11,946 nucleotides of DNA from a virus. The notes below the pieces were generated by a model. That model was given only the letters and a program-made list of their open reading frames with translations, did no database searches and had not been told where the DNA came from. Shown one piece after another: positions 1-11,946 of this stretch (position 1 is the first letter of the stretch; each line of letters begins with the position of its first letter). Location of the stretch: positions 1 to 11,946 of the IMG/VR virus record IMGVR_UViG_3300045988_024551; one strand, 5' to 3'. Made by a program: the position numbers and the translations under genes.

Positions 1-102
1 AAAGGTACACTAGACACGCAGATTTAACATTTCCCAACTATCTTTTAACACTTGCTAACACACTTTGGCACGCTTTTTGCTGTGTCGCTTGTACCGTCAT
101 TG

Positions 103-129
103 TTAACACACTTTAACACATTTAACACA
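103..129. repeat. Three direct TTAACACA repeats at 10- and 9-bp spacing inside the ITR (mirrored at 11818..11844)
   Basis: TTAACACA occurs at 103-110, 113-120 and 122-129. Further TTAACA/CTAACAC copies lie at 24-29, 45-51 and 55-61. Spacing is about one helical turn. Confidence 0.6.
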
Positions 130-160
130 CCGTTAATACTGTTAAACTTTCATAAAAATA

Positions 161-204
161 ATGTTTCACGTGGAACGGTGGATAACAAATGTTTCACGTG
201 GAAC
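161..204. promoter_or_regulatory. Two copies of a 16-bp site ATGTTTCACGTGGAAC (imperfect palindrome around CACGTG), 28 bp apart, inside ITR-L
   Basis: Exact copies at 161-176 and 189-204. The core GTTTCACGTGGAAC differs from its own reverse complement at 2 of 14 positions, as expected for a dimeric DNA-binding protein site. Function (origin accessory or operator) is inferred. Confidence 0.45.
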
Positions 205-269
205 AAAGGGCGAATAGCAGCAAAGTGTCTTATTTGTTAAAGTGATTTAAATTAAAACTTTTACACTTT

Positions 270-320
270 TTAACGAAAATAATTTGGTGGTTTTGCAAAA
301 ATGTTGTATCTTTGCGCCGT
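270..320. repeat. 51-bp promoter module, inverted copy of 11612..11662 (3 mismatches), lying inside the perfect ITR after a non-homologous spacer
   Basis: Left: TTAACGAAAATAATTTGGTGGTTTTGCAAAAATGTTGTATCTTTGCGCCGT. Reverse complement of the right copy: TTAACGAAAATAATTTGGTGGTTTCGCAAAAACGTTGTATCTTTGCACCGT. Confidence 0.85.
283..314 (+). promoter_or_regulatory. Left-end promoter, Bacteroidota type (-33 TTTG, 20-nt spacer, -7 TATCTTTG)
   Basis: TTTG at 283-286 and TATCTTTG at 307-314. It matches the TTTG / TAnnTTTG consensus of Bacteroidota primary-sigma promoters, about 45 nt upstream of the first + strand ORF. Confidence 0.6.
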
Positions 321-357
321 GATTAAGAAACAAAGTTGAACATTTAAATATAAGAAT

Positions 358-684
358 ATGGCAAAGTACAAAATTACTTTAGAGTTTGAATCTGTTGTGT
401 CTATAAACGGTACACGTGTAAAGAGTGAAACATCACGTAACACGCAAATTGTTGAGGGTGTTTTTTCTGACGTTGCAAAAGTTATGTATCAACATGAAAT
501 CAACTGTATTAAGCATAACACCTTACCAAAGTTAACTAAAGACGTTTATACTATCTTTGATTCAAAAGATAATTTGAACTACATTAATGAGTACGGTTGT
601 TGTGTTACACAACTTTGTAACAAGTTGGGAAAAGATGTAAGTTCTTTCTTGCAGTTGATACAAACAAGCGAGAGAATTAAATAA
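358..684 (+). CDS. Hypothetical protein, 108 aa (first gene of the left operon)
   Basis: ATG ORF just downstream of the left promoter, followed by a hairpin. No motif recognised. Confidence 0.65.
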   Translation: MAKYKITLEFESVVSINGTRVKSETSRNTQIVEGVFSDVAKVMYQHEINCIKHNTLPKLTKDVYTIFDSKDNLNYINEYGCCVTQLCNKLGKDVSSFLQLIQTSERIK

Positions 685-693
685 AGTTTAACC

Positions 694-719
694 GCCTGTA
701 ATGTTCACTACTTACAGGC
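694..719 (+). terminator. Possible attenuator hairpin between ORF1 and ORF2
   Basis: GCCTGTAA (694-701) pairs with TTACAGGC (712-719), 10-nt loop. Only a weak T-tract follows, so any termination is probably partial. Confidence 0.3.
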
Positions 720-735
720 TTAAAGTAATTGATAT

Positions 736-939
736 ATGGAATATTCATATTTTAGAATCACATTGAAACAAACCGACAAAGTTACGGTTTTTATGGTACG
801 TTCTGATAAAGTAAGTGAGTTCTTTAATAACAAGATTGATTATTTACAGGGCGATTGCTCAATAACAGTTAAAGGGCGTTTTTCAACGCACAAAGATTCT
901 CGCAAATGGTTTATTGTTACACCAACAGAAAATAAATGA
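736..939 (+). CDS. Hypothetical protein, 67 aa
   Basis: ORF whose stop overlaps the next start in an ATGA junction at 936-939, suggesting translational coupling. Confidence 0.55.
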   Translation: MEYSYFRITLKQTDKVTVFMVRSDKVSEFFNNKIDYLQGDCSITVKGRFSTHKDSRKWFIVTPTENK

Positions 940-1370
940 GTGATATGAAAAAGATTAAGTATTTTAAATTGTCTGAGTTCATCAACTCAGCAACGGCGCA
1001 ACGTCTAAAAATAGACAATATGCCATCGTTTGAAATTGTGGATAACTTGAATCGTTTAGCCGATTATTTAGACGGTATTCGCGAAAAGTTAGGTAAACCG
1101 ATTCTAGTTTCTAGTGGCTACCGATGTCCGTTGTTAAATAAGGCGGTCGGGGGTGTTGTTAACAGTCAACACCAAAAAGGTTTAGCGGCTGATTTGGTTT
1201 GTGCTGATATGACAAAACTTGAATCGGTTCTCAGAGAAACAGGCGGTTTTGACCAACTTATTAAAGAACACCGCAAAGGTTTTCCGAATTCGTTTTGGTT
1301 TCACGTTTCAGTTTGCCCACGTAATGGTAAACCACGCAACCAAATTATAATTAATTTGGAAAAGAAATAG
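936..1370 (+). CDS. Peptidase M15 family (zinc D,D-/L,D-peptidase type) endolysin, 144 aa
   Basis: SGYRCPLLNKAVGGVVNSQHQKGLAADL followed by FWFHVSV gives the H-x6-D...H zinc-ligand pattern of Peptidase_M15-type phage endolysins. No signal peptide or TM segment is evident. Confidence 0.85.
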   Translation: MSDMKKIKYFKLSEFINSATAQRLKIDNMPSFEIVDNLNRLADYLDGIREKLGKPILVSSGYRCPLLNKAVGGVVNSQHQKGLAADLVCADMTKLESVLRETGGFDQLIKEHRKGFPNSFWFHVSVCPRNGKPRNQIIINLEKK

Positions 1371-1372
1371 TT

Positions 1373-1621
1373 ATGGATAAGGTTATAGAAATTTTGTTGA
1401 AATCGGTTGAGGGTTCAACCGAAACTTTGCAGTATATAGCAGGAAACACAACAGGTACAAACGGTATGCTATTAAATTCTGTTATTGATACATTGAAAGC
1501 GCAAACATTAGTAATAAAAACTATTTCGTGCAAACTTGATGAAGAAACGGCAAAGAAAAACCGTGCTTTGGATTTTATTTGTAGCAAAAATTTATATTGC
1601 GAATTTGCTAATAAAAAATAA
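1373..1621 (+). CDS. Hypothetical protein, 82 aa
   Basis: ORF starting 2 nt after the endolysin stop and ending directly at the bidirectional terminator. No TM helix or lipobox seen, so it is not an obvious holin or spanin. Confidence 0.55.
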   Translation: MDKVIEILLKSVEGSTETLQYIAGNTTGTNGMLLNSVIDTLKAQTLVIKTISCKLDEETAKKNRALDFICSKNLYCEFANKK

Positions 1622-1655
1622 GAAAACAGGCGGTAACATTTTACCGCCTGTTTTC
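1622..1655. terminator. Bidirectional intrinsic terminator where the + and - transcription units converge
   Basis: Perfect 15-bp stem GAAAACAGGCGGTAA / TTACCGCCTGTTTTC with a 4-nt loop (CATT). The stem ends supply a run of T's on both strands. Confidence 0.85.
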
Positions 1656-1657
1656 TT

Positions 1658-3220
1658 TTATAGATAAACGCCTGTTTCAAGTTGTGAAACAATTTCGTTA
1701 TATTCATCTACCAACAAATTTGCAGTGTCCAAATTTACGTTTTCAAACTGTGCAAACCCTGTAACGTCTTTCAACGTTACATCTTTTTGCGTGTTGTTAA
1801 TTACAACGTCAACGGTTTTATTTTCCGTTATTAAAAAGTAAGGTTCTAAACCATACAAAATTTGTTCGTTCCATTCGTCACCGCCAACGAGATTTAAATC
1901 GTTATCCCCTGTTCGATAAATAACATCACGTGACAAAGAAAAACTTTCAAACTGAAATGTTACACCGTCACACGATAGGAACGCCACAGCATCACCCGTA
2001 ACGATGTTAACTTTCAAAGACAAATTAACCGTTTTACCAATATATGAGTTATCAACAGGAACAAACCCACGGCACGGGATAAAAATTGAAATCTTTGCAT
2101 CATAATCGGCATTGTTACCGTTTAACCCTGTAAGGGCAACGTTTCCGAAATCTATTGTTATAATATCGGTTTTTGGCGATTCTACAACGATTTTTGTATC
2201 GTAGTCACCACATTTCAAGTTATCCGTACCACTTACAGGAACGTTTGCGAAAATTTGCTTAATACGGTTCACATATACGCCCAAATTAACGGTTTGTGTT
2301 GCACCTGTTGTTTCATCAACCACTTTAGAAAAACGTTGCTTGCTGAAAGCATCTAGATTTTCCAAACTTACTTTATAAACATTAATTGCACCGTAATTTT
2401 TTGCAACGGGTTCAATTATATTGGCATCGGCATTCAAAGTAAAGTTGAAATTTGGCGTAAATGTTAGCGTTCCCGTTTTCTTTTCGCTATCTAGCGTAAA
2501 GTTTACCGTTTTTGGGATTCCGTGCTCTAGATAGTAAACGTTTGGCGTGATTCCGTCAAATATAGCGTTTTCGTTTGCCGTTACCGTCACCGTAATCTCT
2601 TTGCCTTTTTCTACAGTTTCACCCGTCAAACTTGAAACGCAATTTTTCAAATTATATGTGACGTTTACAAACGTTTTAATTTCGTAGGCGTTGGCATTAA
2701 TTGTAAAATTGTCGTTTGGGGTAATTGTCACCGATGCCGTTAATTTGTCGATAGCTACATTAAAAACCGTTGACGGTGTGCCCGATGTTTCGTAGTCAAT
2801 AGCTGGTGCAACACCCGAAAAAGAAAACCCCTTGTTTGCGGTCAAAGTAATCGTTATCTCTTCCCCTTTGTTTACCGTGCCATCGTTTAACGAACTAGTA
2901 CAATTTGACAACGTATTTGTAACCGTGACGGTTTCGGGTACCGGGTCTGCACTTTCAACCGTAAACGCTTTAACGGTGCACGTTGATGCATTTGATGGAA
3001 TCTCATAAGAAATTGTTGCTTTTTTCCCTGTTGAATCCAAAACAAAGTTTGTATTGATATACTGAAAACTTGATGTTCTGATAGCTACCAACGGTACAGG
3101 GTCAAACTTATATCCCGTGTTTGCCTGTAGGGTCAAATTTAAAGTTTCCCCGTGTTCTATTGTTTCGGGCTTGTCACCGATAACGGTTGTCTCTGTTGAA
3201 ATATTATAAGTTATTTTCAT
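1658..3220 (-). CDS. Tail protein, 520 aa: three tandem ~85-aa beta-rich repeat domains (aa ~2-269) plus a C-terminal ~250-aa domain reminiscent of the C-terminal part of the phi29 gp9 tail knob
   Basis: Internal repeats are visible in the translation, with cores LNLTLQANTGYKFD / ITITLTANKGFSFSG / ITVTVTANENAIFDG. This is a VTLTA-x-A-x-x-GY-x-F pattern like divergent InlB B-repeat or Ig-like surface domains. It is the last gene of the late operon. The C-terminal ...FAQFENVNLD...VDEYNEIVSQLETGVYL resembles the gp9 C-terminus by eye only. Confidence 0.6.
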   Translation of the reverse strand: MKITYNISTETTVIGDKPETIEHGETLNLTLQANTGYKFDPVPLVAIRTSSFQYINTNFVLDSTGKKATISYEIPSNASTCTVKAFTVESADPVPETVTVTNTLSNCTSSLNDGTVNKGEEITITLTANKGFSFSGVAPAIDYETSGTPSTVFNVAIDKLTASVTITPNDNFTINANAYEIKTFVNVTYNLKNCVSSLTGETVEKGKEITVTVTANENAIFDGITPNVYYLEHGIPKTVNFTLDSEKKTGTLTFTPNFNFTLNADANIIEPVAKNYGAINVYKVSLENLDAFSKQRFSKVVDETTGATQTVNLGVYVNRIKQIFANVPVSGTDNLKCGDYDTKIVVESPKTDIITIDFGNVALTGLNGNNADYDAKISIFIPCRGFVPVDNSYIGKTVNLSLKVNIVTGDAVAFLSCDGVTFQFESFSLSRDVIYRTGDNDLNLVGGDEWNEQILYGLEPYFLITENKTVDVVINNTQKDVTLKDVTGFAQFENVNLDTANLLVDEYNEIVSQLETGVYL

Positions 3221-3222
3221 AA

Positions 3223-3666
3223 TTAAACATTTCCTTTTATTGTTACCATAATAATGCTACCGTCTTCACTCAATAACTCTTTATTCGGAAAATCAAGTTT
3301 TCTGATATTAGGGCGTGAATCGAAAACGTTTGAACGGTTTGAAAGATACTCGTTAACATTTTCGCCCTTTGTAAGCGTTCCCGTACTATTCAAAATAATA
3401 TCCTTATAAGTTAATAAAACGTCAACACGCAAACGAACTGTGCAAATATCACCGTCTTGTTGCTTTTCTGAAACGAAATAATAACGGTTCAAACTTTCGA
3501 TATAAACGTAATTAAACGTAACAGGCGTGCGAGTTCTGAAACGTACAACAGGCGTTAACACATTAAATGTAGCATTCAACACGCCTGTATATTCTTCGTT
3601 TGTCTGTAGCGTTTTGTTTACTTCGTTTGGTTTGCCGTTGTAAACAAATGTTTTGATTTTAACCAT
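3223..3666 (-). CDS. Small tail/neck protein, 147 aa, from the internal ATG at 3666 (the ORF track extends to 3705)
   Basis: The upstream 13 codons of the tracked ORF lie inside the terminator hairpin 3685-3720, so the ATG at 3664-3666 (MVKIKTFVYNG...) is preferred. NYVYIESLNRYYFVSEKQQDGDICTVRLRVDVLLTY resembles the N-terminal ...YIMFQN...WFYAFVTELE...VHFEIDVLQTW block of the phi29 gp9 tail knob (recalled, not searched). Confidence 0.55.
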   Translation of the reverse strand: MVKIKTFVYNGKPNEVNKTLQTNEEYTGVLNATFNVLTPVVRFRTRTPVTFNYVYIESLNRYYFVSEKQQDGDICTVRLRVDVLLTYKDIILNSTGTLTKGENVNEYLSNRSNVFDSRPNIRKLDFPNKELLSEDGSIIMVTIKGNV

Positions 3667-3671
3667 ACCGC

Positions 3672-3720
3672 TAAAAATTAAAAGGGGGCATTCCTGTGCT
3701 ATCAACTACAGGAACACCCC
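3672..3720 (-). terminator. Intrinsic terminator immediately after the major capsid gene
   Basis: In the minus-strand RNA, GGGGUGUUCCUGU / ACAGGAAUGCCCC forms a 13-bp stem (two G-U pairs) with a 10-nt loop, followed by CUUUUAAUUUUU. Confidence 0.75.
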
Positions 3721-3738
3721 AACAGTTATACAATCAAA

Positions 3739-4923
3739 TTAGGCAACAAAGAACACAACAAAGTTTTCGTTTGTGTCGTTGAAGTAGCCAGCATCGAATT
3801 TGAAGTAATTGTTGAAAAATTCTGCTTTGGCGTTGTAGTTGGTTGTTACTCGCTTATCCAAATTTGTAACACCCAAAGCATCACGGTCAAACATCACACC
3901 CAGCACGCCACCGATGGAAACAGTAGCACCGCTCGCACTCTTAACATCAACTTTTGAAACGTTGTCGAATGCATAATCTTTGCCTGTTGCTTGCCAGCTT
4001 GCAACGGTCTCAGCCTGTGGCAACAACACGTTTTCGTTGTGGAACGTATCGGCATAAAGATATGTTTTTGCAGCGGCTGCAAAATCACTCAACAAGACGG
4101 TGTGCAACACGTCTTTCGGTGTGAAACGCTCTTTGCCGCCAACGTTGAACAAAGTTGAAATGGTTTGCAAACGGTCGGCATACAAACCCATAATATAAGC
4201 GGCAAATCTGATAAAATCCGGTGTTGTTACGGCAACGTTTGCAGCCAACTGTGCTCCCGTCTTCTCGTTGTAAAGATGTAACAAGTTTACGCAACGAACT
4301 GTTGATGCGCTAGAGTAATCTACTGTTTCGTGTGTTGATGCAACAAAACCGAATGCAGATTTGTCTGCGTCCAAAGTTTCAGCAATCATATTGTTAATTG
4401 TACGCATAACTAGTGCATCGGTTTTGATAGTCATTGACTTCTCAACTGCTGAATAAATCATTGACAAAAAGCCGTTCAATTGTTCTGCACTGCTGAAAGA
4501 TTCCTTTACCTGTCTTTCTGTGATAGATACGGGAACCTCAAAAGTTACCTTTGAGTTGAAGAACTTAGCCGAAACTGTCGGTTTGTGGAACACGTCCTGT
4601 TTGTACTCTGTGCCGTCGGTCAAATTCCACGTGTCATTTTCTTCAGCCTGTGGAACGTCAGCGGAAATCTTTTCCAAAACGCTACCAAATTCCCATGCAT
4701 CCATCAAAACGCTTGGAACTTTGCCGCTATACGGGCGGTTTACGAAAACAACTTTGCCGATATGGTTAACCAACGATTTAACGTAATTATCCACGGCATT
4801 TTGGTTAAAAATCTCGTTACCCAAATCAACGATACCCGTTAAATCTTCGTTGACAATATCGGTTTTTCCCAAAACTTCACCCGATACGGTGTTTACTAAA
4901 CTATAAATCTGTTTTACTTCCAT
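3739..4923 (-). CDS. Major capsid protein, phi29 gp8-like (HK97 fold), 394 aa, without the C-terminal Ig-like domain of gp8
   Basis: VDNYVKSLVNHIGKVVF parallels phi29 gp8 QNDFITSLVDRIGLVVI. The C-terminal NNYFKFDAGYF...NFVVFFVA parallels gp8 WNYYYHVW...FANAVAFV. It sits downstream of the portal and is followed by a strong terminator. Confidence 0.8.
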   Translation of the reverse strand: MEVKQIYSLVNTVSGEVLGKTDIVNEDLTGIVDLGNEIFNQNAVDNYVKSLVNHIGKVVFVNRPYSGKVPSVLMDAWEFGSVLEKISADVPQAEENDTWNLTDGTEYKQDVFHKPTVSAKFFNSKVTFEVPVSITERQVKESFSSAEQLNGFLSMIYSAVEKSMTIKTDALVMRTINNMIAETLDADKSAFGFVASTHETVDYSSASTVRCVNLLHLYNEKTGAQLAANVAVTTPDFIRFAAYIMGLYADRLQTISTLFNVGGKERFTPKDVLHTVLLSDFAAAAKTYLYADTFHNENVLLPQAETVASWQATGKDYAFDNVSKVDVKSASGATVSIGGVLGVMFDRDALGVTNLDKRVTTNYNAKAEFFNNYFKFDAGYFNDTNENFVVFFVA

Positions 4924-4942
4924 TTTTATAAAAAATTAAGTA

Positions 4943-5512
4943 TTAATAAATATCTACTGTTAACTCTTTTGCAAGTTCTGTAATAACTTGCGTTTTGAAA
5001 TTAGTTTTGCGTAAACTCATTTCTTTTTGAATAATTTCACTAACAGGAACACTAGACGGCAAACCGTTCTTAATACTTGTTTTCGTGCCCGTTTCTTGTC
5101 GGTTTCCTGTTGATTCTCGTTGTTGCTTGGCATCATTTCCGAAATCTCCATTATTAAACGTTGTACTTGAATCGACTGTATTATTATTTCCTGTTTCGTC
5201 AACGGTATTACTAGTTGTTTCCGTTGTCTTTGACGTTACAGGGTTTAACACGTCATATTCTTTATTAAACACTTGAATTTGTTTTTGCCATTCGTCAAAC
5301 TTCACCGTAATAATACTTTTAACAATATCGTTTGCAGTTTCGTTTGTTACGGCATCAACAAGAATTTTGTTTCCATATTTGAAACGAAAATCAATATCTA
5401 TTATTTTCGGGTCATCTTCCCCGAAAATTGATTTGTACAAAACAGGAAACAGGGGCGCAAAGATTTTTTCAAACAAACCATTTTCACCCGTGAAAAGTTC
5501 GTTAATTTTCAT
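4943..5512 (-). CDS. Head or neck assembly protein, 190 aa (scaffold or lower-collar candidate by position), called from the ATG at 5512
   Basis: The ATG at 5510-5512 overlaps the portal 3' end (GAAAATGAAAATTAA) in the coupled-gene style used elsewhere here. It lies between the portal and the MCP. It has a T/N/S-rich central region and an amphipathic C-terminus. The ORF remains open upstream to 5728 through the repeat (see findings). Confidence 0.55.
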   Translation of the reverse strand: MKINELFTGENGLFEKIFAPLFPVLYKSIFGEDDPKIIDIDFRFKYGNKILVDAVTNETANDIVKSIITVKFDEWQKQIQVFNKEYDVLNPVTSKTTETTSNTVDETGNNNTVDSSTTFNNGDFGNDAKQQRESTGNRQETGTKTSIKNGLPSSVPVSEIIQKEMSLRKTNFKTQVITELAKELTVDIY

Positions 5513-6560
5513 TTTCTTCTTTGTTTTCTTTTGTTTCTTCTGTTTCTTCTGTTTCTGTTTCCGTTTCTTCTGTTTCTTCTGTTTCTGTTTCCGTTTCTTC
5601 TGTTTCTTCTGTTTCTTGCGTTTCGTCCGTTTCGTCCGTTTCGTTTGTAGGGTCAACGTCTTCTGTATCTGTGTGGTCGTGCCCGTCTTCTGATACTTTA
5701 AGCAACGATAAATAGTTTTCGTGCTCAATTTTCCAACTAGACCCCAACGTTACCGTAATATCCGTGCCAAACATTTCGTTAACACGTTTAACACCCTCAA
5801 CACGTTCCGTTAACATTGAATCAACAAACGGCATTAAAGCATCTATATTCATCGAAACTTCTTGCGTGTTCAAACGTTCACGTTTCATGTTATAATTTGC
5901 GTTCAAACCCAAATCGTTAAACATTGACGCTTTGTAATACTGCAAAAGTTCAATCATTTGCGTTATTTGTTGGTTACTTTGTGTTGGTGGTGTTTGCATA
6001 TTTACACCTTTGAAAAACGCATTTTCACCAACCACCGAGAAATCACCGTCCAAAATCTTTTGCAGGAACGATTCTGCACTTTGTCGGGTCTTATCATCAC
6101 TTGCAGAAATAAGCATTGTTATTCTAGTTAAAATACTAGTCATATTCAGCGTTATAACTGCATCGGTGTAAAGTACGCCATATTTCCCGATAATTGGCAA
6201 AATTGAATCTGCAAACGGTGTGTTGTTGATAACTACAATATCATCACCAATTTTGAAAGTTTTATCCAACTTTAACCACGGGTTTGCGACAACGAAATCT
6301 TTGCCCCGATAATACGCATCACATTCACCGCCACGTGAACCCTGTAAGGCGTACAAATCACCGTTAACTTTGGCGATTCCAACGTTACCGCTAGTTTGCA
6401 GAATCTTTTCAAGTTCTACAGGCGGCATTGTTTCGGGTGTTCCTGTATATTCAAACATTTTTGAAGTCATACAAAGAACACGTTGCATAAAAGTATTTAA
6501 TGCGTAATCTTTGTTCTTAACTTCTGTTTGATACAGGGCATATAAATTTTCTTTTTTCAT
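5502..6560 (-). CDS. Portal (connector, upper collar) protein, phi29 gp10-like, 352 aa, with a ~55-aa poly-acidic E/T/D repeat tail
   Basis: [26 protein letters not shown] parallels gp10 [37 protein letters not shown] parallels [35 protein letters not shown] parallels [24 protein letters not shown]. The C-terminus is ...[47 protein letters not shown]. Confidence 0.9.
   Translation of the reverse strand: [352 protein letters not shown]
5533..5646. repeat. In-frame tandem repeat: 30-bp unit GTTTCTTCTGTTTCTTCTGTTTCTGTTTCC x2 exact plus a partial third copy, built from 9-bp GTTTCTTCT-like subunits and decaying into GTTTCGTCC units
   Basis: 5533-5562 is identical to 5563-5592, and 5593-5616 repeats the first 24 nt. 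Degenerate 9-mers continue to 5646. All unit lengths are multiples of 3. Confidence 0.9.
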
Positions 6561-6754
6561 TATTTGATAAGCGTTTTAATTAACGTACAAAGTTCTGTTA
6601 ACACTTTCGTGTTACTTTGTACTGTTTCGTTCAACCTGTCTGTTTCCTGTTGGTGACGTTCATTCTGTTTCTCCATATAAAAGAAAAGGGCGATACAAAC
6701 CGCAACAGGAAAACCAACGTTACTAATTAAAGATACGATTCCGTTTAAATCCAT
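6560..6754 (-). CDS. Small single-pass membrane protein, 64 aa (YvrJ-like; holin candidate), first gene of the late operon
   Basis: Hydrophobic segment IVSLISNVGFPVAVCIALFFYM followed by a charged helix. The ISNVGFP-AV motif recalls the YvrJ family (from memory). Its stop overlaps the portal start (TAATG at 6558-6562). Confidence 0.6.
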   Translation of the reverse strand: MDLNGIVSLISNVGFPVAVCIALFFYMEKQNERHQQETDRLNETVQSNTKVLTELCTLIKTLIK

Positions 6755-6786
6755 ATATTAAATTTTAACTTTGTTATTTTACGTTG

Positions 6787-6818
6787 CAAAGATAGCATTA
6801 TTTTCTGAAAACGCCAAA
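6787..6818 (-). promoter_or_regulatory. Internal (late) promoter, Bacteroidota type, driving the 64-aa gene, portal, MCP and tail genes
   Basis: On the minus strand: TTTG (reverse complement of 6815-6818), 20-nt spacer, TATCTTTG (reverse complement of 6787-6794). This is the same geometry as the two terminal promoters, about 30 nt upstream of the ATG at 6754. Confidence 0.6.
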
Positions 6819-6865
6819 TAAAAACGGGGAAAATGTTTCACGTTAAACACTTTTTATCCCCGTTT
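6811..6865 (-). terminator. Hairpin plus U-tract after the ATPase gene; its 26-nt loop carries a degenerate copy of the ITR site
   Basis: AAACGGGGA (6822-6830) pairs with TCCCCGTTT (6857-6865). The minus-strand RNA is followed by UUUUUAUUU, which overlaps the late -33 element. The loop contains AATGTTTCACGT (6832-6843). Confidence 0.5.
6832..6847. promoter_or_regulatory. Half-conserved copy of the ITR site (AATGTTTCACGTtaaac), about 50-65 nt upstream of the predicted late transcription start
   Basis: The 12-nt string AATGTTTCACGT is identical to the ITR copies at 160-171 and 188-199. A chance 12-mer match in about 12 kb is unlikely. Confidence 0.4.
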
Positions 6866-6873
6866 AACAGATT

Positions 6874-8013
6874 TTAAGAAATAATGTTACTTCTAGCACT
6901 TGCCATCAGGTAATTTCTTACAATTTCCCCGATTTCGTTATTTTGATAAAATACCTTATCTGTTGCGAAATACTTTGTTATCTGTGATTCTAGATAACTT
7001 GCAGTACTCAACAACTTGCGTTTATAGTTCGGTTTGCCGTTCATTCGCAGCGAATAAATTAAACTGTTGTCCGTGTCTTTTATCGGGGTTGTTTTGTTAT
7101 GTATATAAACAAAGTTGTTAACCCCTGTTTCTTCGTCTTCTACTTGAATAACGTTACCCTGTAAGGTCATTTCGTTAAACTGGATATAGAACACAAATAA
7201 CACATCATTCGGGCGATATTTAACGGGTAAATGAGGGTAAACCGCTAGTTCCCATTTACCGCCCGTAATCATCTGCAAATTTTGATTATCGAAACAGAAA
7301 TATTTGTTGCTGGCTTTCTGTTTAACAATCGTGCTGCAATATTCTACTGCAACAGTTGCACCGTGTTCACCGAATTTATAAATATCTATTGTGCCCTGTT
7401 CCATTGAGCGAACTTGTTTCAAACCCATTTCTGAGAAATACGGGCAAAACTGATTTACGGTGTTACCCAACATAAAAACCTTAACATCGTTTCGTTGTCG
7501 GATAATCGTGCTTAACAGGTTCATATATAGCATAAATTCATCGGGCAAATAATAACGTCTTGTCAGGAACTCATCGAAAACGATAGTAGTTATATTCGGG
7601 TAACTGCTAGATTTTTCGTGTTCCTGTTCTGATAAACAGAAACCGAAACAAAACGGTACGTTATCTGGTACACGTTTTTTAGTTTCGGGGTCATAGGACG
7701 AAAGAAACCATTTACCCGAAATATAAAACACTTCATTGAATCTACCGTCTGTCAGTTCCTGTATTACACCGTTTGCAACGTGATTTGAGAATAAACTTTC
7801 GGCACGTTTGCCCCTTAAATCTTCACGCCAACGTCTGATATACGCCATTTGTTTCCCCGTCTTCAAATATTCTTTGATTCCATATAACAACGTGGCGTAT
7901 GTTTTACCGTTGGAACGTTCACCGAATATTACGTTATAATCGGCATTCTTTGCCAAAATTCGTGAAAGACTGTAAAACTTTGGCGTTTCTGCTTTTTCTT
8001 TCTTCTGTTTCAT
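6874..8013 (-). CDS. DNA packaging (encapsidation) ATPase, phi29 gp16-like, 379 aa
   Basis: YSLSRILAKNADYNVIFGERSNGKTYA...AYIRRWREDL parallels gp16 LSYDRILNFVIGARGIGKSYA...IYVRRYKPEL (Walker A). SSSYPNITTIVFDEFLTRR parallels SNAYPNVSTIVFDEFIREK (Walker B). Confidence 0.9.
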   Translation of the reverse strand: MKQKKEKAETPKFYSLSRILAKNADYNVIFGERSNGKTYATLLYGIKEYLKTGKQMAYIRRWREDLRGKRAESLFSNHVANGVIQELTDGRFNEVFYISGKWFLSSYDPETKKRVPDNVPFCFGFCLSEQEHEKSSSYPNITTIVFDEFLTRRYYLPDEFMLYMNLLSTIIRQRNDVKVFMLGNTVNQFCPYFSEMGLKQVRSMEQGTIDIYKFGEHGATVAVEYCSTIVKQKASNKYFCFDNQNLQMITGGKWELAVYPHLPVKYRPNDVLFVFYIQFNEMTLQGNVIQVEDEETGVNNFVYIHNKTTPIKDTDNSLIYSLRMNGKPNYKRKLLSTASYLESQITKYFATDKVFYQNNEIGEIVRNYLMASARSNIIS

Positions 8014-8014
8014 A

Positions 8015-10225
8015 TTATTCTTTTTTTAATCTTATTCCCATTAAATAATTTATATAAAGAACTGAAAGACTCAACGTGTACCCTGTTGGTTCTAAGTGTA
8101 CCCCCGTTAACGTGTCGTAACTTGAAACCGTGCCCGTGTAGTCTTTTATCGTTCCCGCTTGTTCGTAATCAATATACGTGTGTATATTCTTGCCTGTTGC
8201 GCTAGGTGGAATATCCAAATAATTTGTAAATGCGTCAAAGATTCCGTTTTCCCCAAACGTTTCTAACATATAAGGGATAGCAGATTTTTTGTTAACGCCC
8301 GAAACGGTAATACTATAATTGTAATCTTTGCCGTTTACTGTTAGGGCGTTTTCTTCTTCTACCATGTACCTTTTTGCACCTAAAGTCTTAAAACGGATAT
8401 ACCGCCCCTCATAATCCCAAACCCCCAAAGGTTTTGCGATTCCCTTAATCGTGACGGGTTCAACCTTTTCAAAGGGTATTTTATGATGCTTACAGGCTGC
8501 ACGTAATTTTTGTTGTGCTAACATATTGTAGGCAACGAAATATTCTTTGTGAGCATCACCGTTCATTATTTTAACGCTATCGGTATCACTATATATATAA
8601 TCGTCACCACATTCGGCAATACCCGTAAATAAATTACGTCTAGCATAAGCGGTAACGTATATTCCCCACGGATAAAACAAGAAACGATTTTTGCTATCAT
8701 TGTATTTTTGCAGCGTTTCTAATTGCTTTTCCCCTGTAAGGTGTTCAATATCCCACGTTTCGCCATCACACAAAATCTCATCACGCAACGGGTTTGTAAC
8801 ACACATACCGTAACAACTGTTTAGCATTTCTTTGCTATTCAAATACTCTACTTCTTTGCCTTTAACGCCTTTTAGTTTCGTCTTCATTTCGTAAAGGTGT
8901 AAAATAGATTCTACAAACTCGGTCGGCAAATATTCTTTTCTGTAGCATATCATTCGCCCGATTCTGATTTGTTCCCACGTGTAAAACTGTGAAAAAACTT
9001 TGAAATCTATTTCGGTAATCGTCATACAAATCTTTGTTGCACAAACTAAACGCCCGTTATTCTCGGAAACGTTTTCTTTTACGAAACACTTACTAACAGA
9101 TATCGGGTTTTCGTTTTCTGATTTTGCGAATATGTTTGTAATCTCAATATCAAAGACACAACAGTATTTACTCGTCATAAACTCAAATTGTTTCATCGAT
9201 TTAACAGGAACAACAACGCCCGTGCTCATCGGGAATTTTTCGGAAACCATCACATAAGGGTAACTGCTAGTAAAATCGTAACTATCAACGTTTTCTATTA
9301 CCTCATCGGTATATTTTGCGTTGGCGTGCGTAAAACCGCCCGAAAATGCCCTTTGTAACATTAAAAATTCTTCCATTCCTGTAATATTCAAATTGTGTAT
9401 TTTATCCAAATATTTAAAGTTTGGAATCGTTTTACCTGTTTCGGGGTCTGTTGTCTTGAAGCATACAGAACGGCAATATTTGCGTACAAATCCAGTTTTT
9501 GTTATTGGTAGCTTTGTTATTCCTTTGTAACGTTCCAAAAGTTCCTGTATATAGCACATAACAACTTTTATATCGTTCAAACAGTAATCAATTTCTTTTT
9601 GTGTCAACGGGGTTTTACTGTGACGTAATAGGCTATAATCTAAATCACCTACCAACTTTTCACATTTATATTTGTGAAGTTGTTCACCTAATTTCGCCAA
9701 CGAATAACCCGATAGCAAATAAGAGCAACGGAACTCTAAACCGCTTTTTGTTATTCCGTAAATCGGTTTACGCAAATCAATAGAGAAAACTTTTTCCCAT
9801 TTTAGCATTTCCCGTAAAAATTGGAACTCATATGCCAAATTGTGAACATATATAATAATACGCCTTTTTTGGTTCAGATTCAATATTCCCACGATGTTAT
9901 CTAACATTTGCAAAAATTCTTTCCATGTTCTACCAATAATGCAAAAACCATTTATTCCAAATTGCCAAACGTACATTAAACTACATTTTTCCATTTTGGT
10001 ATCTTTGCCACCTAATTTTATGTAACGGTCATAACTATATGTTTCCCCGTCTTCATCACGATAAAATGAAGTAGTTTCAATATCAAATGAAACAGGCACA
10101 TTTAAGAACTTTTCGCCCCTATTGTTTCCCATAAAGTTCTTTTCGTTCACAGCCAACGATAAAACCTTTGCAATATCTTTAGGCGTGTAAATTTCGTTGT
10201 GAAGTTCAAAGGGTATCTTTTTCAT
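8015..10225 (-). CDS. Protein-primed family B DNA polymerase, 736 aa
   Basis: ExoI FDIETT (D48/E50); ExoII HNLAYEFQF (aa 128-136); ExoIII YCLNDIKV (aa 214-221); motif A DSYDFTSSYPY (aa 314-324); motif B KEMLNSCYG (aa 465-473); motif C YSDTDS (aa 545-550); KxY GAKRY (aa 616-620). Confidence 0.95.
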   Translation of the reverse strand: MKKIPFELHNEIYTPKDIAKVLSLAVNEKNFMGNNRGEKFLNVPVSFDIETTSFYRDEDGETYSYDRYIKLGGKDTKMEKCSLMYVWQFGINGFCIIGRTWKEFLQMLDNIVGILNLNQKRRIIIYVHNLAYEFQFLREMLKWEKVFSIDLRKPIYGITKSGLEFRCSYLLSGYSLAKLGEQLHKYKCEKLVGDLDYSLLRHSKTPLTQKEIDYCLNDIKVVMCYIQELLERYKGITKLPITKTGFVRKYCRSVCFKTTDPETGKTIPNFKYLDKIHNLNITGMEEFLMLQRAFSGGFTHANAKYTDEVIENVDSYDFTSSYPYVMVSEKFPMSTGVVVPVKSMKQFEFMTSKYCCVFDIEITNIFAKSENENPISVSKCFVKENVSENNGRLVCATKICMTITEIDFKVFSQFYTWEQIRIGRMICYRKEYLPTEFVESILHLYEMKTKLKGVKGKEVEYLNSKEMLNSCYGMCVTNPLRDEILCDGETWDIEHLTGEKQLETLQKYNDSKNRFLFYPWGIYVTAYARRNLFTGIAECGDDYIYSDTDSVKIMNGDAHKEYFVAYNMLAQQKLRAACKHHKIPFEKVEPVTIKGIAKPLGVWDYEGRYIRFKTLGAKRYMVEEENALTVNGKDYNYSITVSGVNKKSAIPYMLETFGENGIFDAFTNYLDIPPSATGKNIHTYIDYEQAGTIKDYTGTVSSYDTLTGVHLEPTGYTLSLSVLYINYLMGIRLKKE

Positions 10226-10887
10226 TATAAACCGAATTTTTTAAAACTCTTTAGAATCTTTGCTAATGTATCATCAAGTAAACCGCTTATTCGTTCCTGT
10301 TCTTCTTCGATAGCTTTAGCTTGTTCGTTCAAATCGTCTTGCAACGAATCTGCTATTTTTATTGCATCATCTTCGATTTGGTCGGAAACGTCTTTGCTTT
10401 CTTGTTCAAGTTCCCCCGTAAAGTCTTTGTATTGCATTAAATATTGTTCCAAAAACTTTTCATCGGAAACACTCGCAATTTTACCCATCAATTTATTTTG
10501 CATCAAACTAAATTCATCATCGTTTAGTTTGTACGTTCTCTTTAGGTGTTGCGCATATTCTTTCGTACCCGTTGCACTTGATGTAGGTTGTTGCAGAAAC
10601 GCCACCGCTTTAGCATATTCGATTTTTAAATCGTTCCAATCGTGTTTCATTGAAAACTTTGCAAACCCTTTTATATCACCTTTGTTAAGGGCAACAACTG
10701 CTGGCGACACAATACCCGAATTTTCAACATTTTGTATGCGTCGGTTTGCCTGTTGAAAAGTTCGTGCAATTTCTTTTCTTAATACAGGGTCTGATTCCAA
10801 AGCGGTTAAAATCTCGCTTTTTACGTGAATTTTCCCCGTAAACGAAAAAGTTCTTTTACTAAACCCTATTGGATTTCTTTTTGCCAT
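10225..10887 (-). CDS. Candidate terminal (priming) protein, 220 aa
   Basis: Positional: it lies immediately upstream of the polymerase and overlaps it by 1 nt, as gene 3 precedes gene 2 in phi29. Basic N-terminus (MAKRNPIGFSKR...RTFQQANRRIQN) and strongly acidic helical C-terminal third (DVSDQIEDDAIKIADSLQDDLNEQAKAIEEEQE). No direct sequence homology recognised. Confidence 0.5.
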   Translation of the reverse strand: MAKRNPIGFSKRTFSFTGKIHVKSEILTALESDPVLRKEIARTFQQANRRIQNVENSGIVSPAVVALNKGDIKGFAKFSMKHDWNDLKIEYAKAVAFLQQPTSSATGTKEYAQHLKRTYKLNDDEFSLMQNKLMGKIASVSDEKFLEQYLMQYKDFTGELEQESKDVSDQIEDDAIKIADSLQDDLNEQAKAIEEEQERISGLLDDTLAKILKSFKKFGL

Positions 10888-10908
10888 AATTTACTAAATT
10901 TTAAAATG

Positions 10909-10954
10909 AAACAAAAACGGGGGCAACAATAAATAAATTACTGTTTACCCCCGT
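10909..10954 (-). terminator. Intrinsic terminator or attenuator between the 121-aa gene and the TP-polymerase-ATPase genes
   Basis: Minus-strand RNA ACGGGGG...CCCCCGU (10948-10954 pairs with 10917-10923), followed by UUUUUGUUU. Confidence 0.65.
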
Positions 10955-10982
10955 GACGTTATTCAACCCTTTTACCTTACAA

Positions 10983-11348
10983 CTACTTATCTACAAAGGT
11001 AATACCGTAACACTTTTTGGCGTGCGATTCATATTCATAAATCGTGTAACCAACTTTGTTTGCTTTGATAGCATCTACCGCATCACTATTAGCGAGAATC
11101 TCTCTCACTGTGTCACCTGTAAACTGTGGTAAGTTAACAAGACGTTTGTTTTCTGCGTCAATGATAACGGGCGAATCTCCCAACTGTGACTTGTGAACGT
11201 ACATACCATTAATAGGATGCACCACATCACCTCCACCTTCTTTCTCATCGTTGAAAATATCAACCAACTTTACAAACGGGAAATCTGTTGTATCAATCCC
11301 GAAACTAGTTTTATTAAAAGTACTAGCAAAACTAAAACCCTTTGGCAT
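10983..11348 (-). CDS. Hypothetical early protein, 121 aa (candidate ssDNA- or dsDNA-binding replication accessory protein, by position and size)
   Basis: It occupies the position of phi29 genes 5/6 upstream of the TP gene, is similar in size to p5 (124 aa), and is separated from TP/pol by an attenuator, consistent with a high-copy protein. Function is inferred only. Confidence 0.55.
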   Translation of the reverse strand: MPKGFSFASTFNKTSFGIDTTDFPFVKLVDIFNDEKEGGGDVVHPINGMYVHKSQLGDSPVIIDAENKRLVNLPQFTGDTVREILANSDAVDAIKANKVGYTIYEYESHAKKCYGITFVDK

Positions 11349-11399
11349 ACCTTAAAGCCTTTTAAACGTTAAACTTCTGTTGTCTTTGAACACCTGTTA

Positions 11400-11567
11400 C
11401 TACTTGACTTCGTTCACACCGTTTGCAGATGCAAACTCGTTCAACCACTTCTTAAAGCGGTTCAACTTAATAACCGCCTTATCATCTCTAGCCACTTCAT
11501 TTGAAGTCATAAGAGCATTAACACTAGTAATACAGTTGAAAACTGTTTCATTAAAATTCTCATTCAT
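11400..11567 (-). CDS. Hypothetical early protein, 55 aa (below the ORF-track cutoff), first gene of the right operon
   Basis: My manual translation of the minus strand is MNENFNETVFNCITSVNALMTSNEVARDDKAVIKLNRFKKWLNEFASANGVNEVK*. It starts about 45 nt downstream of the right promoter and is co-oriented with the operon, unlike the tracked + strand ORF 11380..11592. Confidence 0.45.
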   Translation of the reverse strand: MNENFNETVFNCITSVNALMTSNEVARDDKAVIKLNRFKKWLNEFASANGVNEVK

Positions 11568-11617
11568 AATTTCACCTAATTTAAATTGTTAAACTTATAT
11601 TGTTTCTTAAACACGGT

Positions 11618-11649
11618 GCAAAGATACAACGTTTTTGCGAAACCACCAA
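11618..11649 (-). promoter_or_regulatory. Right-end (early) promoter, Bacteroidota type, near-identical to the left promoter
   Basis: On the minus strand: TTTG (reverse complement of 11646-11649), 20-nt spacer, TATCTTTG (reverse complement of 11618-11625). Confidence 0.6.
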
Positions 11650-11706
11650 ATTATTTTCGTTAAAAAGTCTTAAAGAAATAAATTAACTGTTGTTAACACT
11701 TACAAC

Positions 11707-11786
11707 GTTCCACGTGAAACACTTTGCTGCTATTCGCCCTTTGTTCCACGTGAAACATTTGTTATCCACCGTTCCACGTGAAACAT
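11707..11786. promoter_or_regulatory. Three copies of the CACGTG-core site at the right end: two are ITR mirror copies and one extra copy straddles the ITR boundary
   Basis: GTTCCACGTGAAACA occurs at 11707-11722 (extra copy, absent on the left), 11743-11758 and 11771-11786. Confidence 0.45.
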
Positions 11787-11946
11787 TATTTTTATGAAAG
11801 TTTAACAGTATTAACGGTGTGTTAAATGTGTTAAAGTGTGTTAACAATGACGGTACAAGCGACACAGCAAAAAGCGTGCCAAAGTGTGTTAGCAAGTGTT
11901 AAAAGATAGTTGGGAAATGTTAAATCTGCGTGTCTAGTGTACCTTT
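11719..11946. repeat. Right inverted terminal repeat (ITR-R), 228 bp
   Basis: Reverse complement of 1..228 with no mismatch. The window ends ...GTGTACCTTT. Confidence 0.95.

Follow-up and report, generated by a model that had tools for sequence, protein, structure and literature searches.

Depletion of GATC, GGCC, CCGG and CGCG in a small phi29-like phage genome and its relatives

Introduction

Why would a phage genome of 12 kb lack two short palindromes altogether and nearly lack two more? The question is raised by IMG/VR virus record IMGVR_UViG_3300045988_024551, a phi29-like phage sequence of 11,946 nt that was analysed over its full length and is referred to below as the window. An earlier note, written from the letters of the window alone, had reported that GATC and GGCC are missing and that CCGG, CGCG and GCGC are nearly so, and had read this pattern as selection against type II restriction sites. 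Here we describe the extent of the depletion, the codon choices that produce it, and its conservation and turnover among relatives of the phage. Selection by type II restriction enzymes of the host very probably explains it.

Results

Four palindromes are depleted in the window

Words were counted by exact string search on the + strand of the whole window, and the counts were compared with three expectations (Table 1). The first was a maximal-order Markov expectation. Shuffle A permuted synonymous codons (2000 shuffles), and shuffle B kept the proteins, the codon usage of each gene and all dinucleotide counts (500 shuffles). The exact search returned no GATC and no GGCC, as the earlier note had stated, and both CCGG sites lay exactly where it had placed them. 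The single CGCG was also recovered, at positions 1080–1083 rather than near 1079–1082. For each of these four words P was ≤0.002 in both shuffles, with observed/null ratios of 0–0.16. We conclude that neither codon bias nor dinucleotide bias accounts for their depletion.

Table 1. Observed and expected counts of five palindromes in the window
Word	Observed	Markov (z)	Shuffle A	Shuffle B
GATC	0	27.3 (−6.3)	20.2	9.2
CCGG	2	27.2 (−6.2)	14.8	12.4
CGCG	1	16.2 (−4.7)	8.7	7.3
GGCC	0	14.3 (−4.7)	6.7	5.5
GCGC	7	11.1 (−1.4)	10.8 (P=0.10)	12.8 (P=0.004)

Other words behaved differently from what had been claimed. GCGC, said to occur about five times and to be nearly absent, was present seven times and showed no convincing depletion; avoidance of this HhaI-type site was at most marginal in the window, and the word was unaffected in the clade of relatives described below (ratio 0.88–0.91) and in its sister clade (1.08). 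TCGA, which had been regarded as not avoided, was mildly depleted (14 vs 21–28 expected, P 0.0015–0.006). CATG had been overlooked and was clearly depleted (5 vs 14.8–19.8 expected, P<0.002). AGCT, likewise missing from the earlier list, occurred 7 times against 14.7 in the Markov model; shuffle A expected 18.4, with 0/2000 shuffles reaching 7, and shuffle B expected 10.3 (P=0.16). The AGCT deficit is thus weaker and less certain than that of CATG. CTAG was over-represented (27 vs 12–17 expected).

Counts of constituent and related words were 130 for GAT, 77 for GCC, 74 for GGC, 116 for CGG, 136 for CCG, 31 for CGCC, 30 for GGCG and 35 for GTAC. CpG numbered 581 (observed/expected 1.47), in agreement with the earlier description of this dinucleotide as abundant. 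The CpG excess coexists with the loss of CCGG and CGCG, both in the window and in its clade.

Codon choice varies with the neighbouring base

Codon usage was compared between places where a codon and its neighbour would together spell an avoided word and all other places. Where the next codon begins with C, aspartate was encoded by GAC in 13/13 cases (GAT 0/13), compared with 142 GAT among 193 aspartate codons elsewhere (p=1e-7). ATC was used in none of the 38 isoleucine codons that follow G (47/197 elsewhere), and CCG in only 2 of the 29 proline codons that precede G (30/70 elsewhere). Similarly, ACC was never chosen for the 39 threonines before GG (36/265 elsewhere), nor GCG for the 30 alanines after C (22/140 elsewhere). 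The identical contrasts, computed in 23 representative relatives, gave Fisher p values of 1e-14 to 1e-92. From these data we conclude that neighbour-dependent synonymous codon choice produces the depletion.

These results bear on whether the low counts could arise passively, from base composition or amino-acid content or from biases in dinucleotides and codon usage. In favour of this reading, GA/TC and AG/CT dinucleotides stand at 0.62–0.89 and lower the first-order GATC expectation from 39.5 to 18.3. However, shuffle B still expects every one of the four words (Table 1), and the observed values arose in ≤0.2% of the codon-preserving shuffles, a kind of check that the earlier note had proposed; the refuting outcome named there did not occur. 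Moreover, CCGG is nearly gone although CpG, CCG and CGG are plentiful, and which synonymous codon is picked depends on the adjoining base. The shuffles and the codon contrasts together refute this explanation, and we give it hardly any probability.

The depletion is conserved and residual sites are young

The earlier note had also suggested comparing related contigs. Eighty relatives were collected, with polymerase identities of 89–98%, whole-genome nucleotide divergence of 9–27% and a pooled length of 945 kb. From these, 23 diverged representatives (275 kb in total; their pairwise divergence has a median of 21%) were subjected to shuffle B with 200 shuffles each. Pooled observed/Markov ratios were 0.039 for GATC, 0.029 for GGCC, 0.046 for CCGG and 0.071 for CGCG; the values for GCGC (0.91) and GTAC (0.90) were near 1, the latter bearing out the statement that GTAC is not avoided. 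In the 23 representatives the lowest 4 of 136 4-mer classes were GGCC (0.09), GATC (0.10), CGCG (0.11) and CCGG (0.12), with z values of −10 to −20. By our own arithmetic, the chance that the bottom four would all be palindromes is about 1e-4. The next-lowest classes were CCAG/CTGG (0.29), CATG (0.42), CTCC/GGAG (0.56) and AGCT (0.59).

Residual copies of the avoided words were singletons, found in one genome per alignment column, in 76–93% of cases. The number of genomes per site was 1.1–1.5 for avoided words and 6–13 for GTAC, ACGT, TGCA and CTAG. The three residual sites of the window are listed in Table 2. We conclude that the residual sites are young, which is a signature of purifying selection.

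Two apparent exceptions were examined and rejected. About 17 of the 72 pooled GATC copies were Illumina adapter remnants at contig ends, so these copies do not reflect tolerance; adapters give database contigs spurious GATC. Relative L061 appeared to have relaxed avoidance, but its surplus CCGG, GGCC and CGCG copies all fell in a non-homologous stretch of ~2 kb at its left end, which is probably a chimeric assembly.

The relatives also bear on whether library preparation, assembly or database filtering had removed site-bearing sequences. Nearly all of them come from one aggregated IMG/VR dataset, 3300045988. Nevertheless, the pattern recurs outside it, in contigs from at least 8 further IMG datasets, in an ENA assembly and in a contig of a GenBank metagenome-assembled genome (MAG), and GATC-containing adapter remnants survive at assembly ends. 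Cultured relatives and Bacteroides phages, in addition, show comparable but different avoidance. A technical origin has practically no probability in our estimation.

A mutational origin was also considered, in which host cytosine methyltransferases methylate the sites and deamination of 5-methylcytosine then erodes them. GGCC, CCGG and CGCG are typical targets of such enzymes, and every strongly avoided 4-mer except GATC could lose a C by this route. Yet GATC is the most strongly depleted word, and the GATC systems of Bacteroidota methylate adenine (PMC5608340). Deamination of CCGG would yield CCAG/CTGG, which is itself depleted, whereas GCGC, another classic target, is undepleted and CpG is over-represented. 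Mutation alone, furthermore, would not hold near-zero counts over >20% divergence with a spectrum dominated by singletons. Mutational decay is therefore very improbable.

The avoided set is broad but specific

To define the breadth of avoidance, ~115 known recognition patterns were scored against the shuffle B null in the 23 representatives; the enzyme names given to patterns in this work are presumed to be those of the REBASE prototypes. Pooled Markov ratios for 5- and 6-mers were treated as provisional and were superseded by this synonymous-shuffle null. For example, CCCGC was dropped from the list of strongly avoided words when its ratio rose from 0.16 (pooled Markov) to 0.55 (shuffle).

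Strong depletion was found for GGNCC (0.06), CGWCG (0.08), CCTGA (0.09), CCTTC (0.14) and CGSCG (0.15), and among 6-mers for GACGTC (0.04), CTTAAG (0.05), GATATC (0.08), CAATTG (0.09) and CTGCAG (0.15). CCWGG (0.24), GAATTC (0.27), TGTACA (0.28) and TTCGAA (0.30) were moderately depleted. Other patterns showed no depletion or were enriched (GCGC 0.88, GCNGC 0.96, ACGT 1.04, TGCA 1.11, GTNAC 1.13, ACNGT 1.13, GTTAAC 1.19, AACGTT 1.24, GANTC 1.30, CTAG 1.67, TCTAGA 2.7 and GCTAGC 3.5). As many palindromes were untouched or enriched, a general aversion to palindromes is ruled out, and the earlier claim that only certain palindromes are affected was upheld. The list of avoided words that accompanied that claim was right as to the four core palindromes, but the full set is much wider and includes non-palindromic words.

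Two further observations were made on over- and under-represented words. CTAG, GCTAGC, TCTAGA and GAWTC stood 1.4–3.5-fold above the synonymous-shuffle null. ACAGG/CCTGT was strongly enriched (z ~31), and AAAA and TTTT fell below Markov expectation.

The avoided set differs between close lineages

Subclades of the relatives differed in the words that they avoid. Subclade c3 tolerated CATG (97 observed/110 null, vs 47/230 in the other subclades) and also showed no avoidance of CCAAG or GAATTC. CCATC was avoided (5/38) only in c3 and c5, and in c1–2 neither CCTGC nor TTCGAA was avoided. We also analysed an abundant sister clade (L098–L134), which consists of 11–11.7-kb genomes with a polymerase identity of 69% and a G+C content of 43.7%. 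The sister clade keeps the core (GATC 0.03, GGCC 0.02, CCGG 0.04, CGCG 0.03) and adds CTAG (4 vs 137 expected, 0.03) and GANTC (11 vs 255, 0.04), while CCAG, CCTGC and CGSCG are not avoided. This difference suggests that the sister clade has a different host, possibly a Bacteroides-like one.

The words avoided by related contigs fall into two layers. GATC, GGCC, CCGG and CGCG form a common core, and CATG, CTAG, GANTC, CCATC and others are lineage-specific. We conclude that the avoided set tracks lineage and is not a fixed property of the virus family. The two layers show that avoided sets turn over on short evolutionary timescales.

Turnover of this kind argues against mimicry of host oligonucleotide usage, and against a general disfavour of palindromes such as might arise from structural constraints during protein-primed strand-displacement replication. 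Many genomes contain fewer short palindromes than expected (PMC3077040), and one clade member, L081, was binned into a MAG, which implies that the composition of the clade resembles that of some bacterial genomes. However, subclades of equal G+C and gene content differ in CATG, CCATC, GAATTC and CCAAG, and avoidance of CTAG and GANTC sets the sister clade apart. CTAG, ACGT, TGCA, GTAC, TTAA, GANTC, GTTAAC and AACGTT are undepleted or enriched, non-palindromic words are depleted as well, and a 10- to 30-fold depletion far exceeds typical host-genome biases. Mimicry or general palindrome disfavour is consequently improbable.

Genome ends, gene order and small features

The window is the whole linear genome of a small virulent phi29-like podophage, whose host is probably a member of the human-gut Bacteroidales. 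Its features are listed in Table 2. Beyond the perfect inverted terminal repeats, the arms are still 85% similar up to about position 333. In independent assemblies of relatives, an Illumina adapter (...GCTCTTCCGATCT) is joined straight onto AAAGGTACAC..., which are the first bases of the window, and an adapter (...GTGCTCTTCCGATCT) is joined to AAAGGTACAC at contig ends of L002, L003, L011, L058, L063, L064 and L075. Because the adapters join directly to this sequence, position 1 of the window corresponds to the physical end of the DNA. The terminal AAA (window ends 1–10 and 11937–11946) resembles the reiterated ends that serve sliding-back in phi29-type protein-primed initiation.

Table 2. 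Features of the window
Feature	Position	Strand	Remarks
Left inverted terminal repeat	1..228		228-nt arms, 100% complementary
CACGTG-centred repeats	163-176, 191-204, 6836-6848, 11707-11720, 11743-11756, 11771-11784
Bacteroidota-type promoter (TTTG-N19-TAnnTTTG)	283..315	+	drives rightward genes
Endolysin, Peptidase M15_3	936..1370	+	PF08291, E 3.7e-19
Sole CGCG	1080..1083		in endolysin gene; also in four relatives
520-aa tail/appendage protein, probable receptor binding	1658..3220	-	predicted from gene-order position; weak InlB B-repeat match
Residual CCGG	2941..2944		in 520-aa tail/appendage gene; singleton among 80 relatives
phi29-type major capsid protein	3739..4923	-	phrog_2006, E 4e-39; PF25622 Phi29_MCP (identical gene)
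Residual CCGG	4218..4221		in major capsid gene; one other carrier only, relative L070
Portal/upper collar connector, acidic E/T-repeat tail	5502..6560	-	phrog_2038, E 1e-37
Bacteroidota-type promoter	6786..6818	-	upstream of structural/late leftward genes
DNA packaging ATPase	6874..8013	-	phrog_2150, E 4e-33
Family-B DNA polymerase, protein-primed type	8015..10225	-	phrog_1907, E 2.5e-73
220-aa open reading frame, candidate terminal protein by position only	10225..10887	-	overlaps polymerase, directly upstream
Bacteroidota-type promoter	11618..11650	-	upstream of replication/early leftward genes
Right inverted terminal repeat	11719..11946		perfect 228-bp match to left arm

The 220-aa open reading frame (ORF) had no family match, and its position is syntenic with astrithr gp02. 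A tblastn search of the phage database with the 520-aa tail protein returned no homologue, and GenBank phages gave no nucleotide-level match to the whole window by megablast. Public metagenomes contain the clade in abundance, and at 90% identity its polymerase falls in a cluster of 4,681 member sequences. No methyltransferase or base-modification enzyme was found in PHROGs or Pfam among 14 predicted proteins, a 55-aa ORF at 11400–11567 lying outside the scan. The earlier statement that the genome carries no methyltransferase thus held for the proteins scanned; as to an anti-restriction gene, none was recognised, and six small ORFs were without a match. Small ORFs without annotation lie at 358–684, 736–939, 1373–1621, 6560–6754, 10983–11348 and 11400–11567.

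Two further elements, one repeated and one symmetrical, were seen. The acidic C-terminal tail of the portal (ETEETEETE...) is encoded by imperfect 9-nt tandem repeats at 5508–5650, and in another frame the same DNA forms a K/Q-rich ORF. The next gene probably starts at ATG 5512 rather than at the TTG upstream of it. Between the convergent gene blocks, at 1622–1657, there is a perfect G+C-rich hairpin (AAAACAGGCGGTAACATTTTACCGCCTGTTTTC), which is likely to be a bidirectional terminator.

Promoters and the likely host

The pattern TTTG-N17-21-TAnnTTTGC occurred exactly 3 times in the window vs 0.18 expected. There was one copy in each long intergenic region, oriented toward the downstream genes, and the three copies were near-identical (TTTGG-N19-TATCTTTGC). 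We take this pattern to be the Bacteroidota sigma-A architecture, with TTTG at −33, TAnnTTTG at −7 and no Shine-Dalgarno sequence. Upstream of the start codons the sequence was A/T-rich, and no GGAGG or Shine-Dalgarno motif was found there. A CACGTG-centred repeat of ~14 nt (GTTTCACGTGGAAC and its complement) was also observed in clusters, each just upstream of one promoter. These repeats may be bound by a regulator of phage or host origin, or may be replication-origin elements.

The best full-length matches of the endolysin in cultured phages were siphophages of B. fragilis, with 47% identity (e.g. vB_BfrS_23). Phi29-like phages of Bacteroidales have already been proposed from faecal metagenomes (reviewed by Evseev et al., PMC11476376). 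Given the promoters, the missing Shine-Dalgarno motif, the endolysin matches and this published proposal, the host of the window is probably a member of the Bacteroidales.

Another host lead came from a polymerase scan of 185,579 species genomes, in which the sole match was a phage contig of the clade inside a MAG. This contig, L081 (CAAGHI010000088.1), is identical to IMG/VR contig L064 and belongs to a human-gut MAG of 'Candidatus Gastranaerophilales'. The lead constitutes weak evidence and was set aside as a probable mis-bin, because of the Bacteroidota promoters, the endolysin resembling that of B. fragilis phages and the Bacteroides-phage-like CTAG avoidance of the sister clade. If the binning were correct, the lead would contradict what the promoters indicate.

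The earlier note had thought that the avoidance pattern might help to fingerprint the host, and this proved partly so: the window clade tolerates CTAG, a word almost completely avoided by the sister clade and by two Bacteroides phages. As tolerance of CTAG is the main feature that sets the window clade apart from known Bacteroides phages, we infer that the pattern suggests a Bacteroidales host other than Bacteroides strains with CTAG-specific systems.

Discussion

The best explanation for the depletion, and a very probable one, is selection by type II restriction enzymes of the host. The depletion, its codon mechanism, its conservation, its specificity for certain words and its turnover between lineages were all observed directly; that restriction enzymes of host populations were the selective agent, as well as which enzymes and which host were involved, is what we infer from them. 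The attribution to type II sites made in the earlier note is supported for the MboI, HaeIII, HpaII and FnuDII classes and fails for the HhaI class (GCGC).

Selection would operate as follows. Phage DNA would reach each new cell unmodified or wrongly modified, and the phage appears to encode neither a DNA methyltransferase nor a recognisable anti-restriction protein. Any site for a resident type II endonuclease would then be potentially lethal. Synonymous or conservative substitutions that abolish a site would give their carriers more progeny, and new sites born by mutation would be quickly purged. The classes eliminated in this way would be GATC (MboI/DpnII/Sau3AI), GGCC and GGNCC (HaeIII/Sau96I/AvaII), CCGG (HpaII/MspI) and CGCG (FnuDII/BstUI), with CATG, CGWCG, CCTTC, GATATC, CAATTG, CTGCAG, CTTAAG, GACGTC and the unassigned CCTGA, CCAG and CGSCG further reduced.

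Published work is consistent with this mechanism. Among Bacteroidota, Prevotella intermedia is documented to carry active MboI-like restriction-modification (R-M) systems specific for GATC (PMC5608340). The elimination of sites is a well-established way for phages to escape restriction; it is most pronounced for orthodox type II sites of double-stranded DNA (dsDNA) phages that are not temperate, and it is nearly complete in roughly one-tenth of phage genomes (PMC6286503).

Several points weigh against selection by host restriction. Avoidance of non-orthodox sites is rare according to Rusinov et al. (PMC6286503). The assignment of enzymes to words is presumptive, being based on prototype specificities. 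CCTGA/TCAGG, CCAG/CTGG, CGSCG and CCAAG are strongly depleted, and to our knowledge no prototype enzyme can be named for them; the unassigned motifs were looked for in a gut-methylome preprint and were not found there. The six small ORFs without a family match could have an anti-restriction function that was not recognised. One CCGG, in the alignment column near window position 3791, is common to 15 relatives, which means that single sites can be tolerated. Finally, pooled z-scores overstate independence because the relatives share phylogeny.

In classical cases of avoidance, GGCC is missing from the Bacillus phages phi29, phi1 and SPO1 and GATC from Staphylococcus phage K; coliphage T7 is a further example. 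Like these phages, the window has lost almost all copies of 4-bp palindromic type II sites by a synonymous route, is small, virulent and dsDNA-based and appears to encode no methyltransferase, and has an avoided set that appears to vary with the host. In contrast to them, its avoided words are matched to no specific enzyme and its host is uncultured. The set is also unusually broad for 12 kb, with at least 15 words, and includes non-palindromic 4- to 5-mers (CCAG, CCTGA, CCTTC and CCAAG), which were rarely avoided by the phages surveyed in PMC6286503.

Among cultured phages, those most closely related to the window are Salmonella phage astrithr (Astrithrvirus), Acinetobacter phage Phanie and Pectobacterium phage DU_PP_III. 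Astrithr resembles the window in gene order, size (11.6 kb), polymerase (45.7% amino-acid identity) and lack of GATC (0 vs 28 expected). However, its CGCG (43/57) and GCGC (45/51) counts are near expectation, CCGG (17/37) and GGCC (10/26) are only ~2-fold low, CTAG is under-represented (9/23), its host is enterobacterial and it has no Bacteroidota promoters. Among phages of Bacteroides, B40-8 (B. fragilis) also avoids GGCC (4/53) and CGCG (6/67), but it avoids CTAG (3/80), encodes methyltransferases and keeps GATC and CCGG. CrAss001 (B. intestinalis) shares the loss of GGCC (0/21) and GATC (0/133) and differs in CTAG (2/170) and in avoiding CpG altogether. In bases 1–50000 of crAss001 (L086) we counted 44 CpG vs ~1,400 expected, and the tRNA cluster at 1.8–5.8 kb accounts for over half of the 44; no paper discussing this scarcity was found in the literature searched. 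Phages of the 'Bacteriophage sp. isolate 2692_55609' type (PMC11476376) are, like the window, human-faecal, 11–14 kb in size and related to Astrithrvirus, with a Bacteroidales host suggested from sequence; oligonucleotide avoidance was not analysed in that study.

Restriction-site avoidance is textbook biology, and our results leave that understanding unchanged. What the window offers is an unusually clean and extreme example in a clade of uncultured gut phages, in which a 12-kb genome, apparently too small to hold anti-restriction genes, seems to depend solely on edits to its own sequence, and of which thousands of natural variants exist in public data. The added value lies in the breadth of the set, including non-palindromic words that could not be assigned, in its turnover between close lineages and in its potential as a fingerprint. 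For uncultured gut phages, avoidance sets could serve to fingerprint the host or its R-M systems, with uses in host prediction and in choosing or engineering phages to cross the restriction barriers of Bacteroidales.

A bolder proposal, which we hold tentatively and think somewhat more apt to be wrong than right, is that the avoided set directly reads out which restriction specificities circulate among uncultured Bacteroidales hosts, including uncharacterised specificities. If true, the readout would include the specificities CCTGA/TCAGG, CCAG/CTGG, CGNCG and CCAAG, in addition to CCATC, which resembles what we take to be the type IIS site of BccI. Gain or loss of words between subclades (CATG, CCATC, GAATTC and CCAAG) and between clades (CTAG and GANTC) would then mark host switches, and hosts could be assigned, and new R-M specificities predicted, from metagenomes alone.

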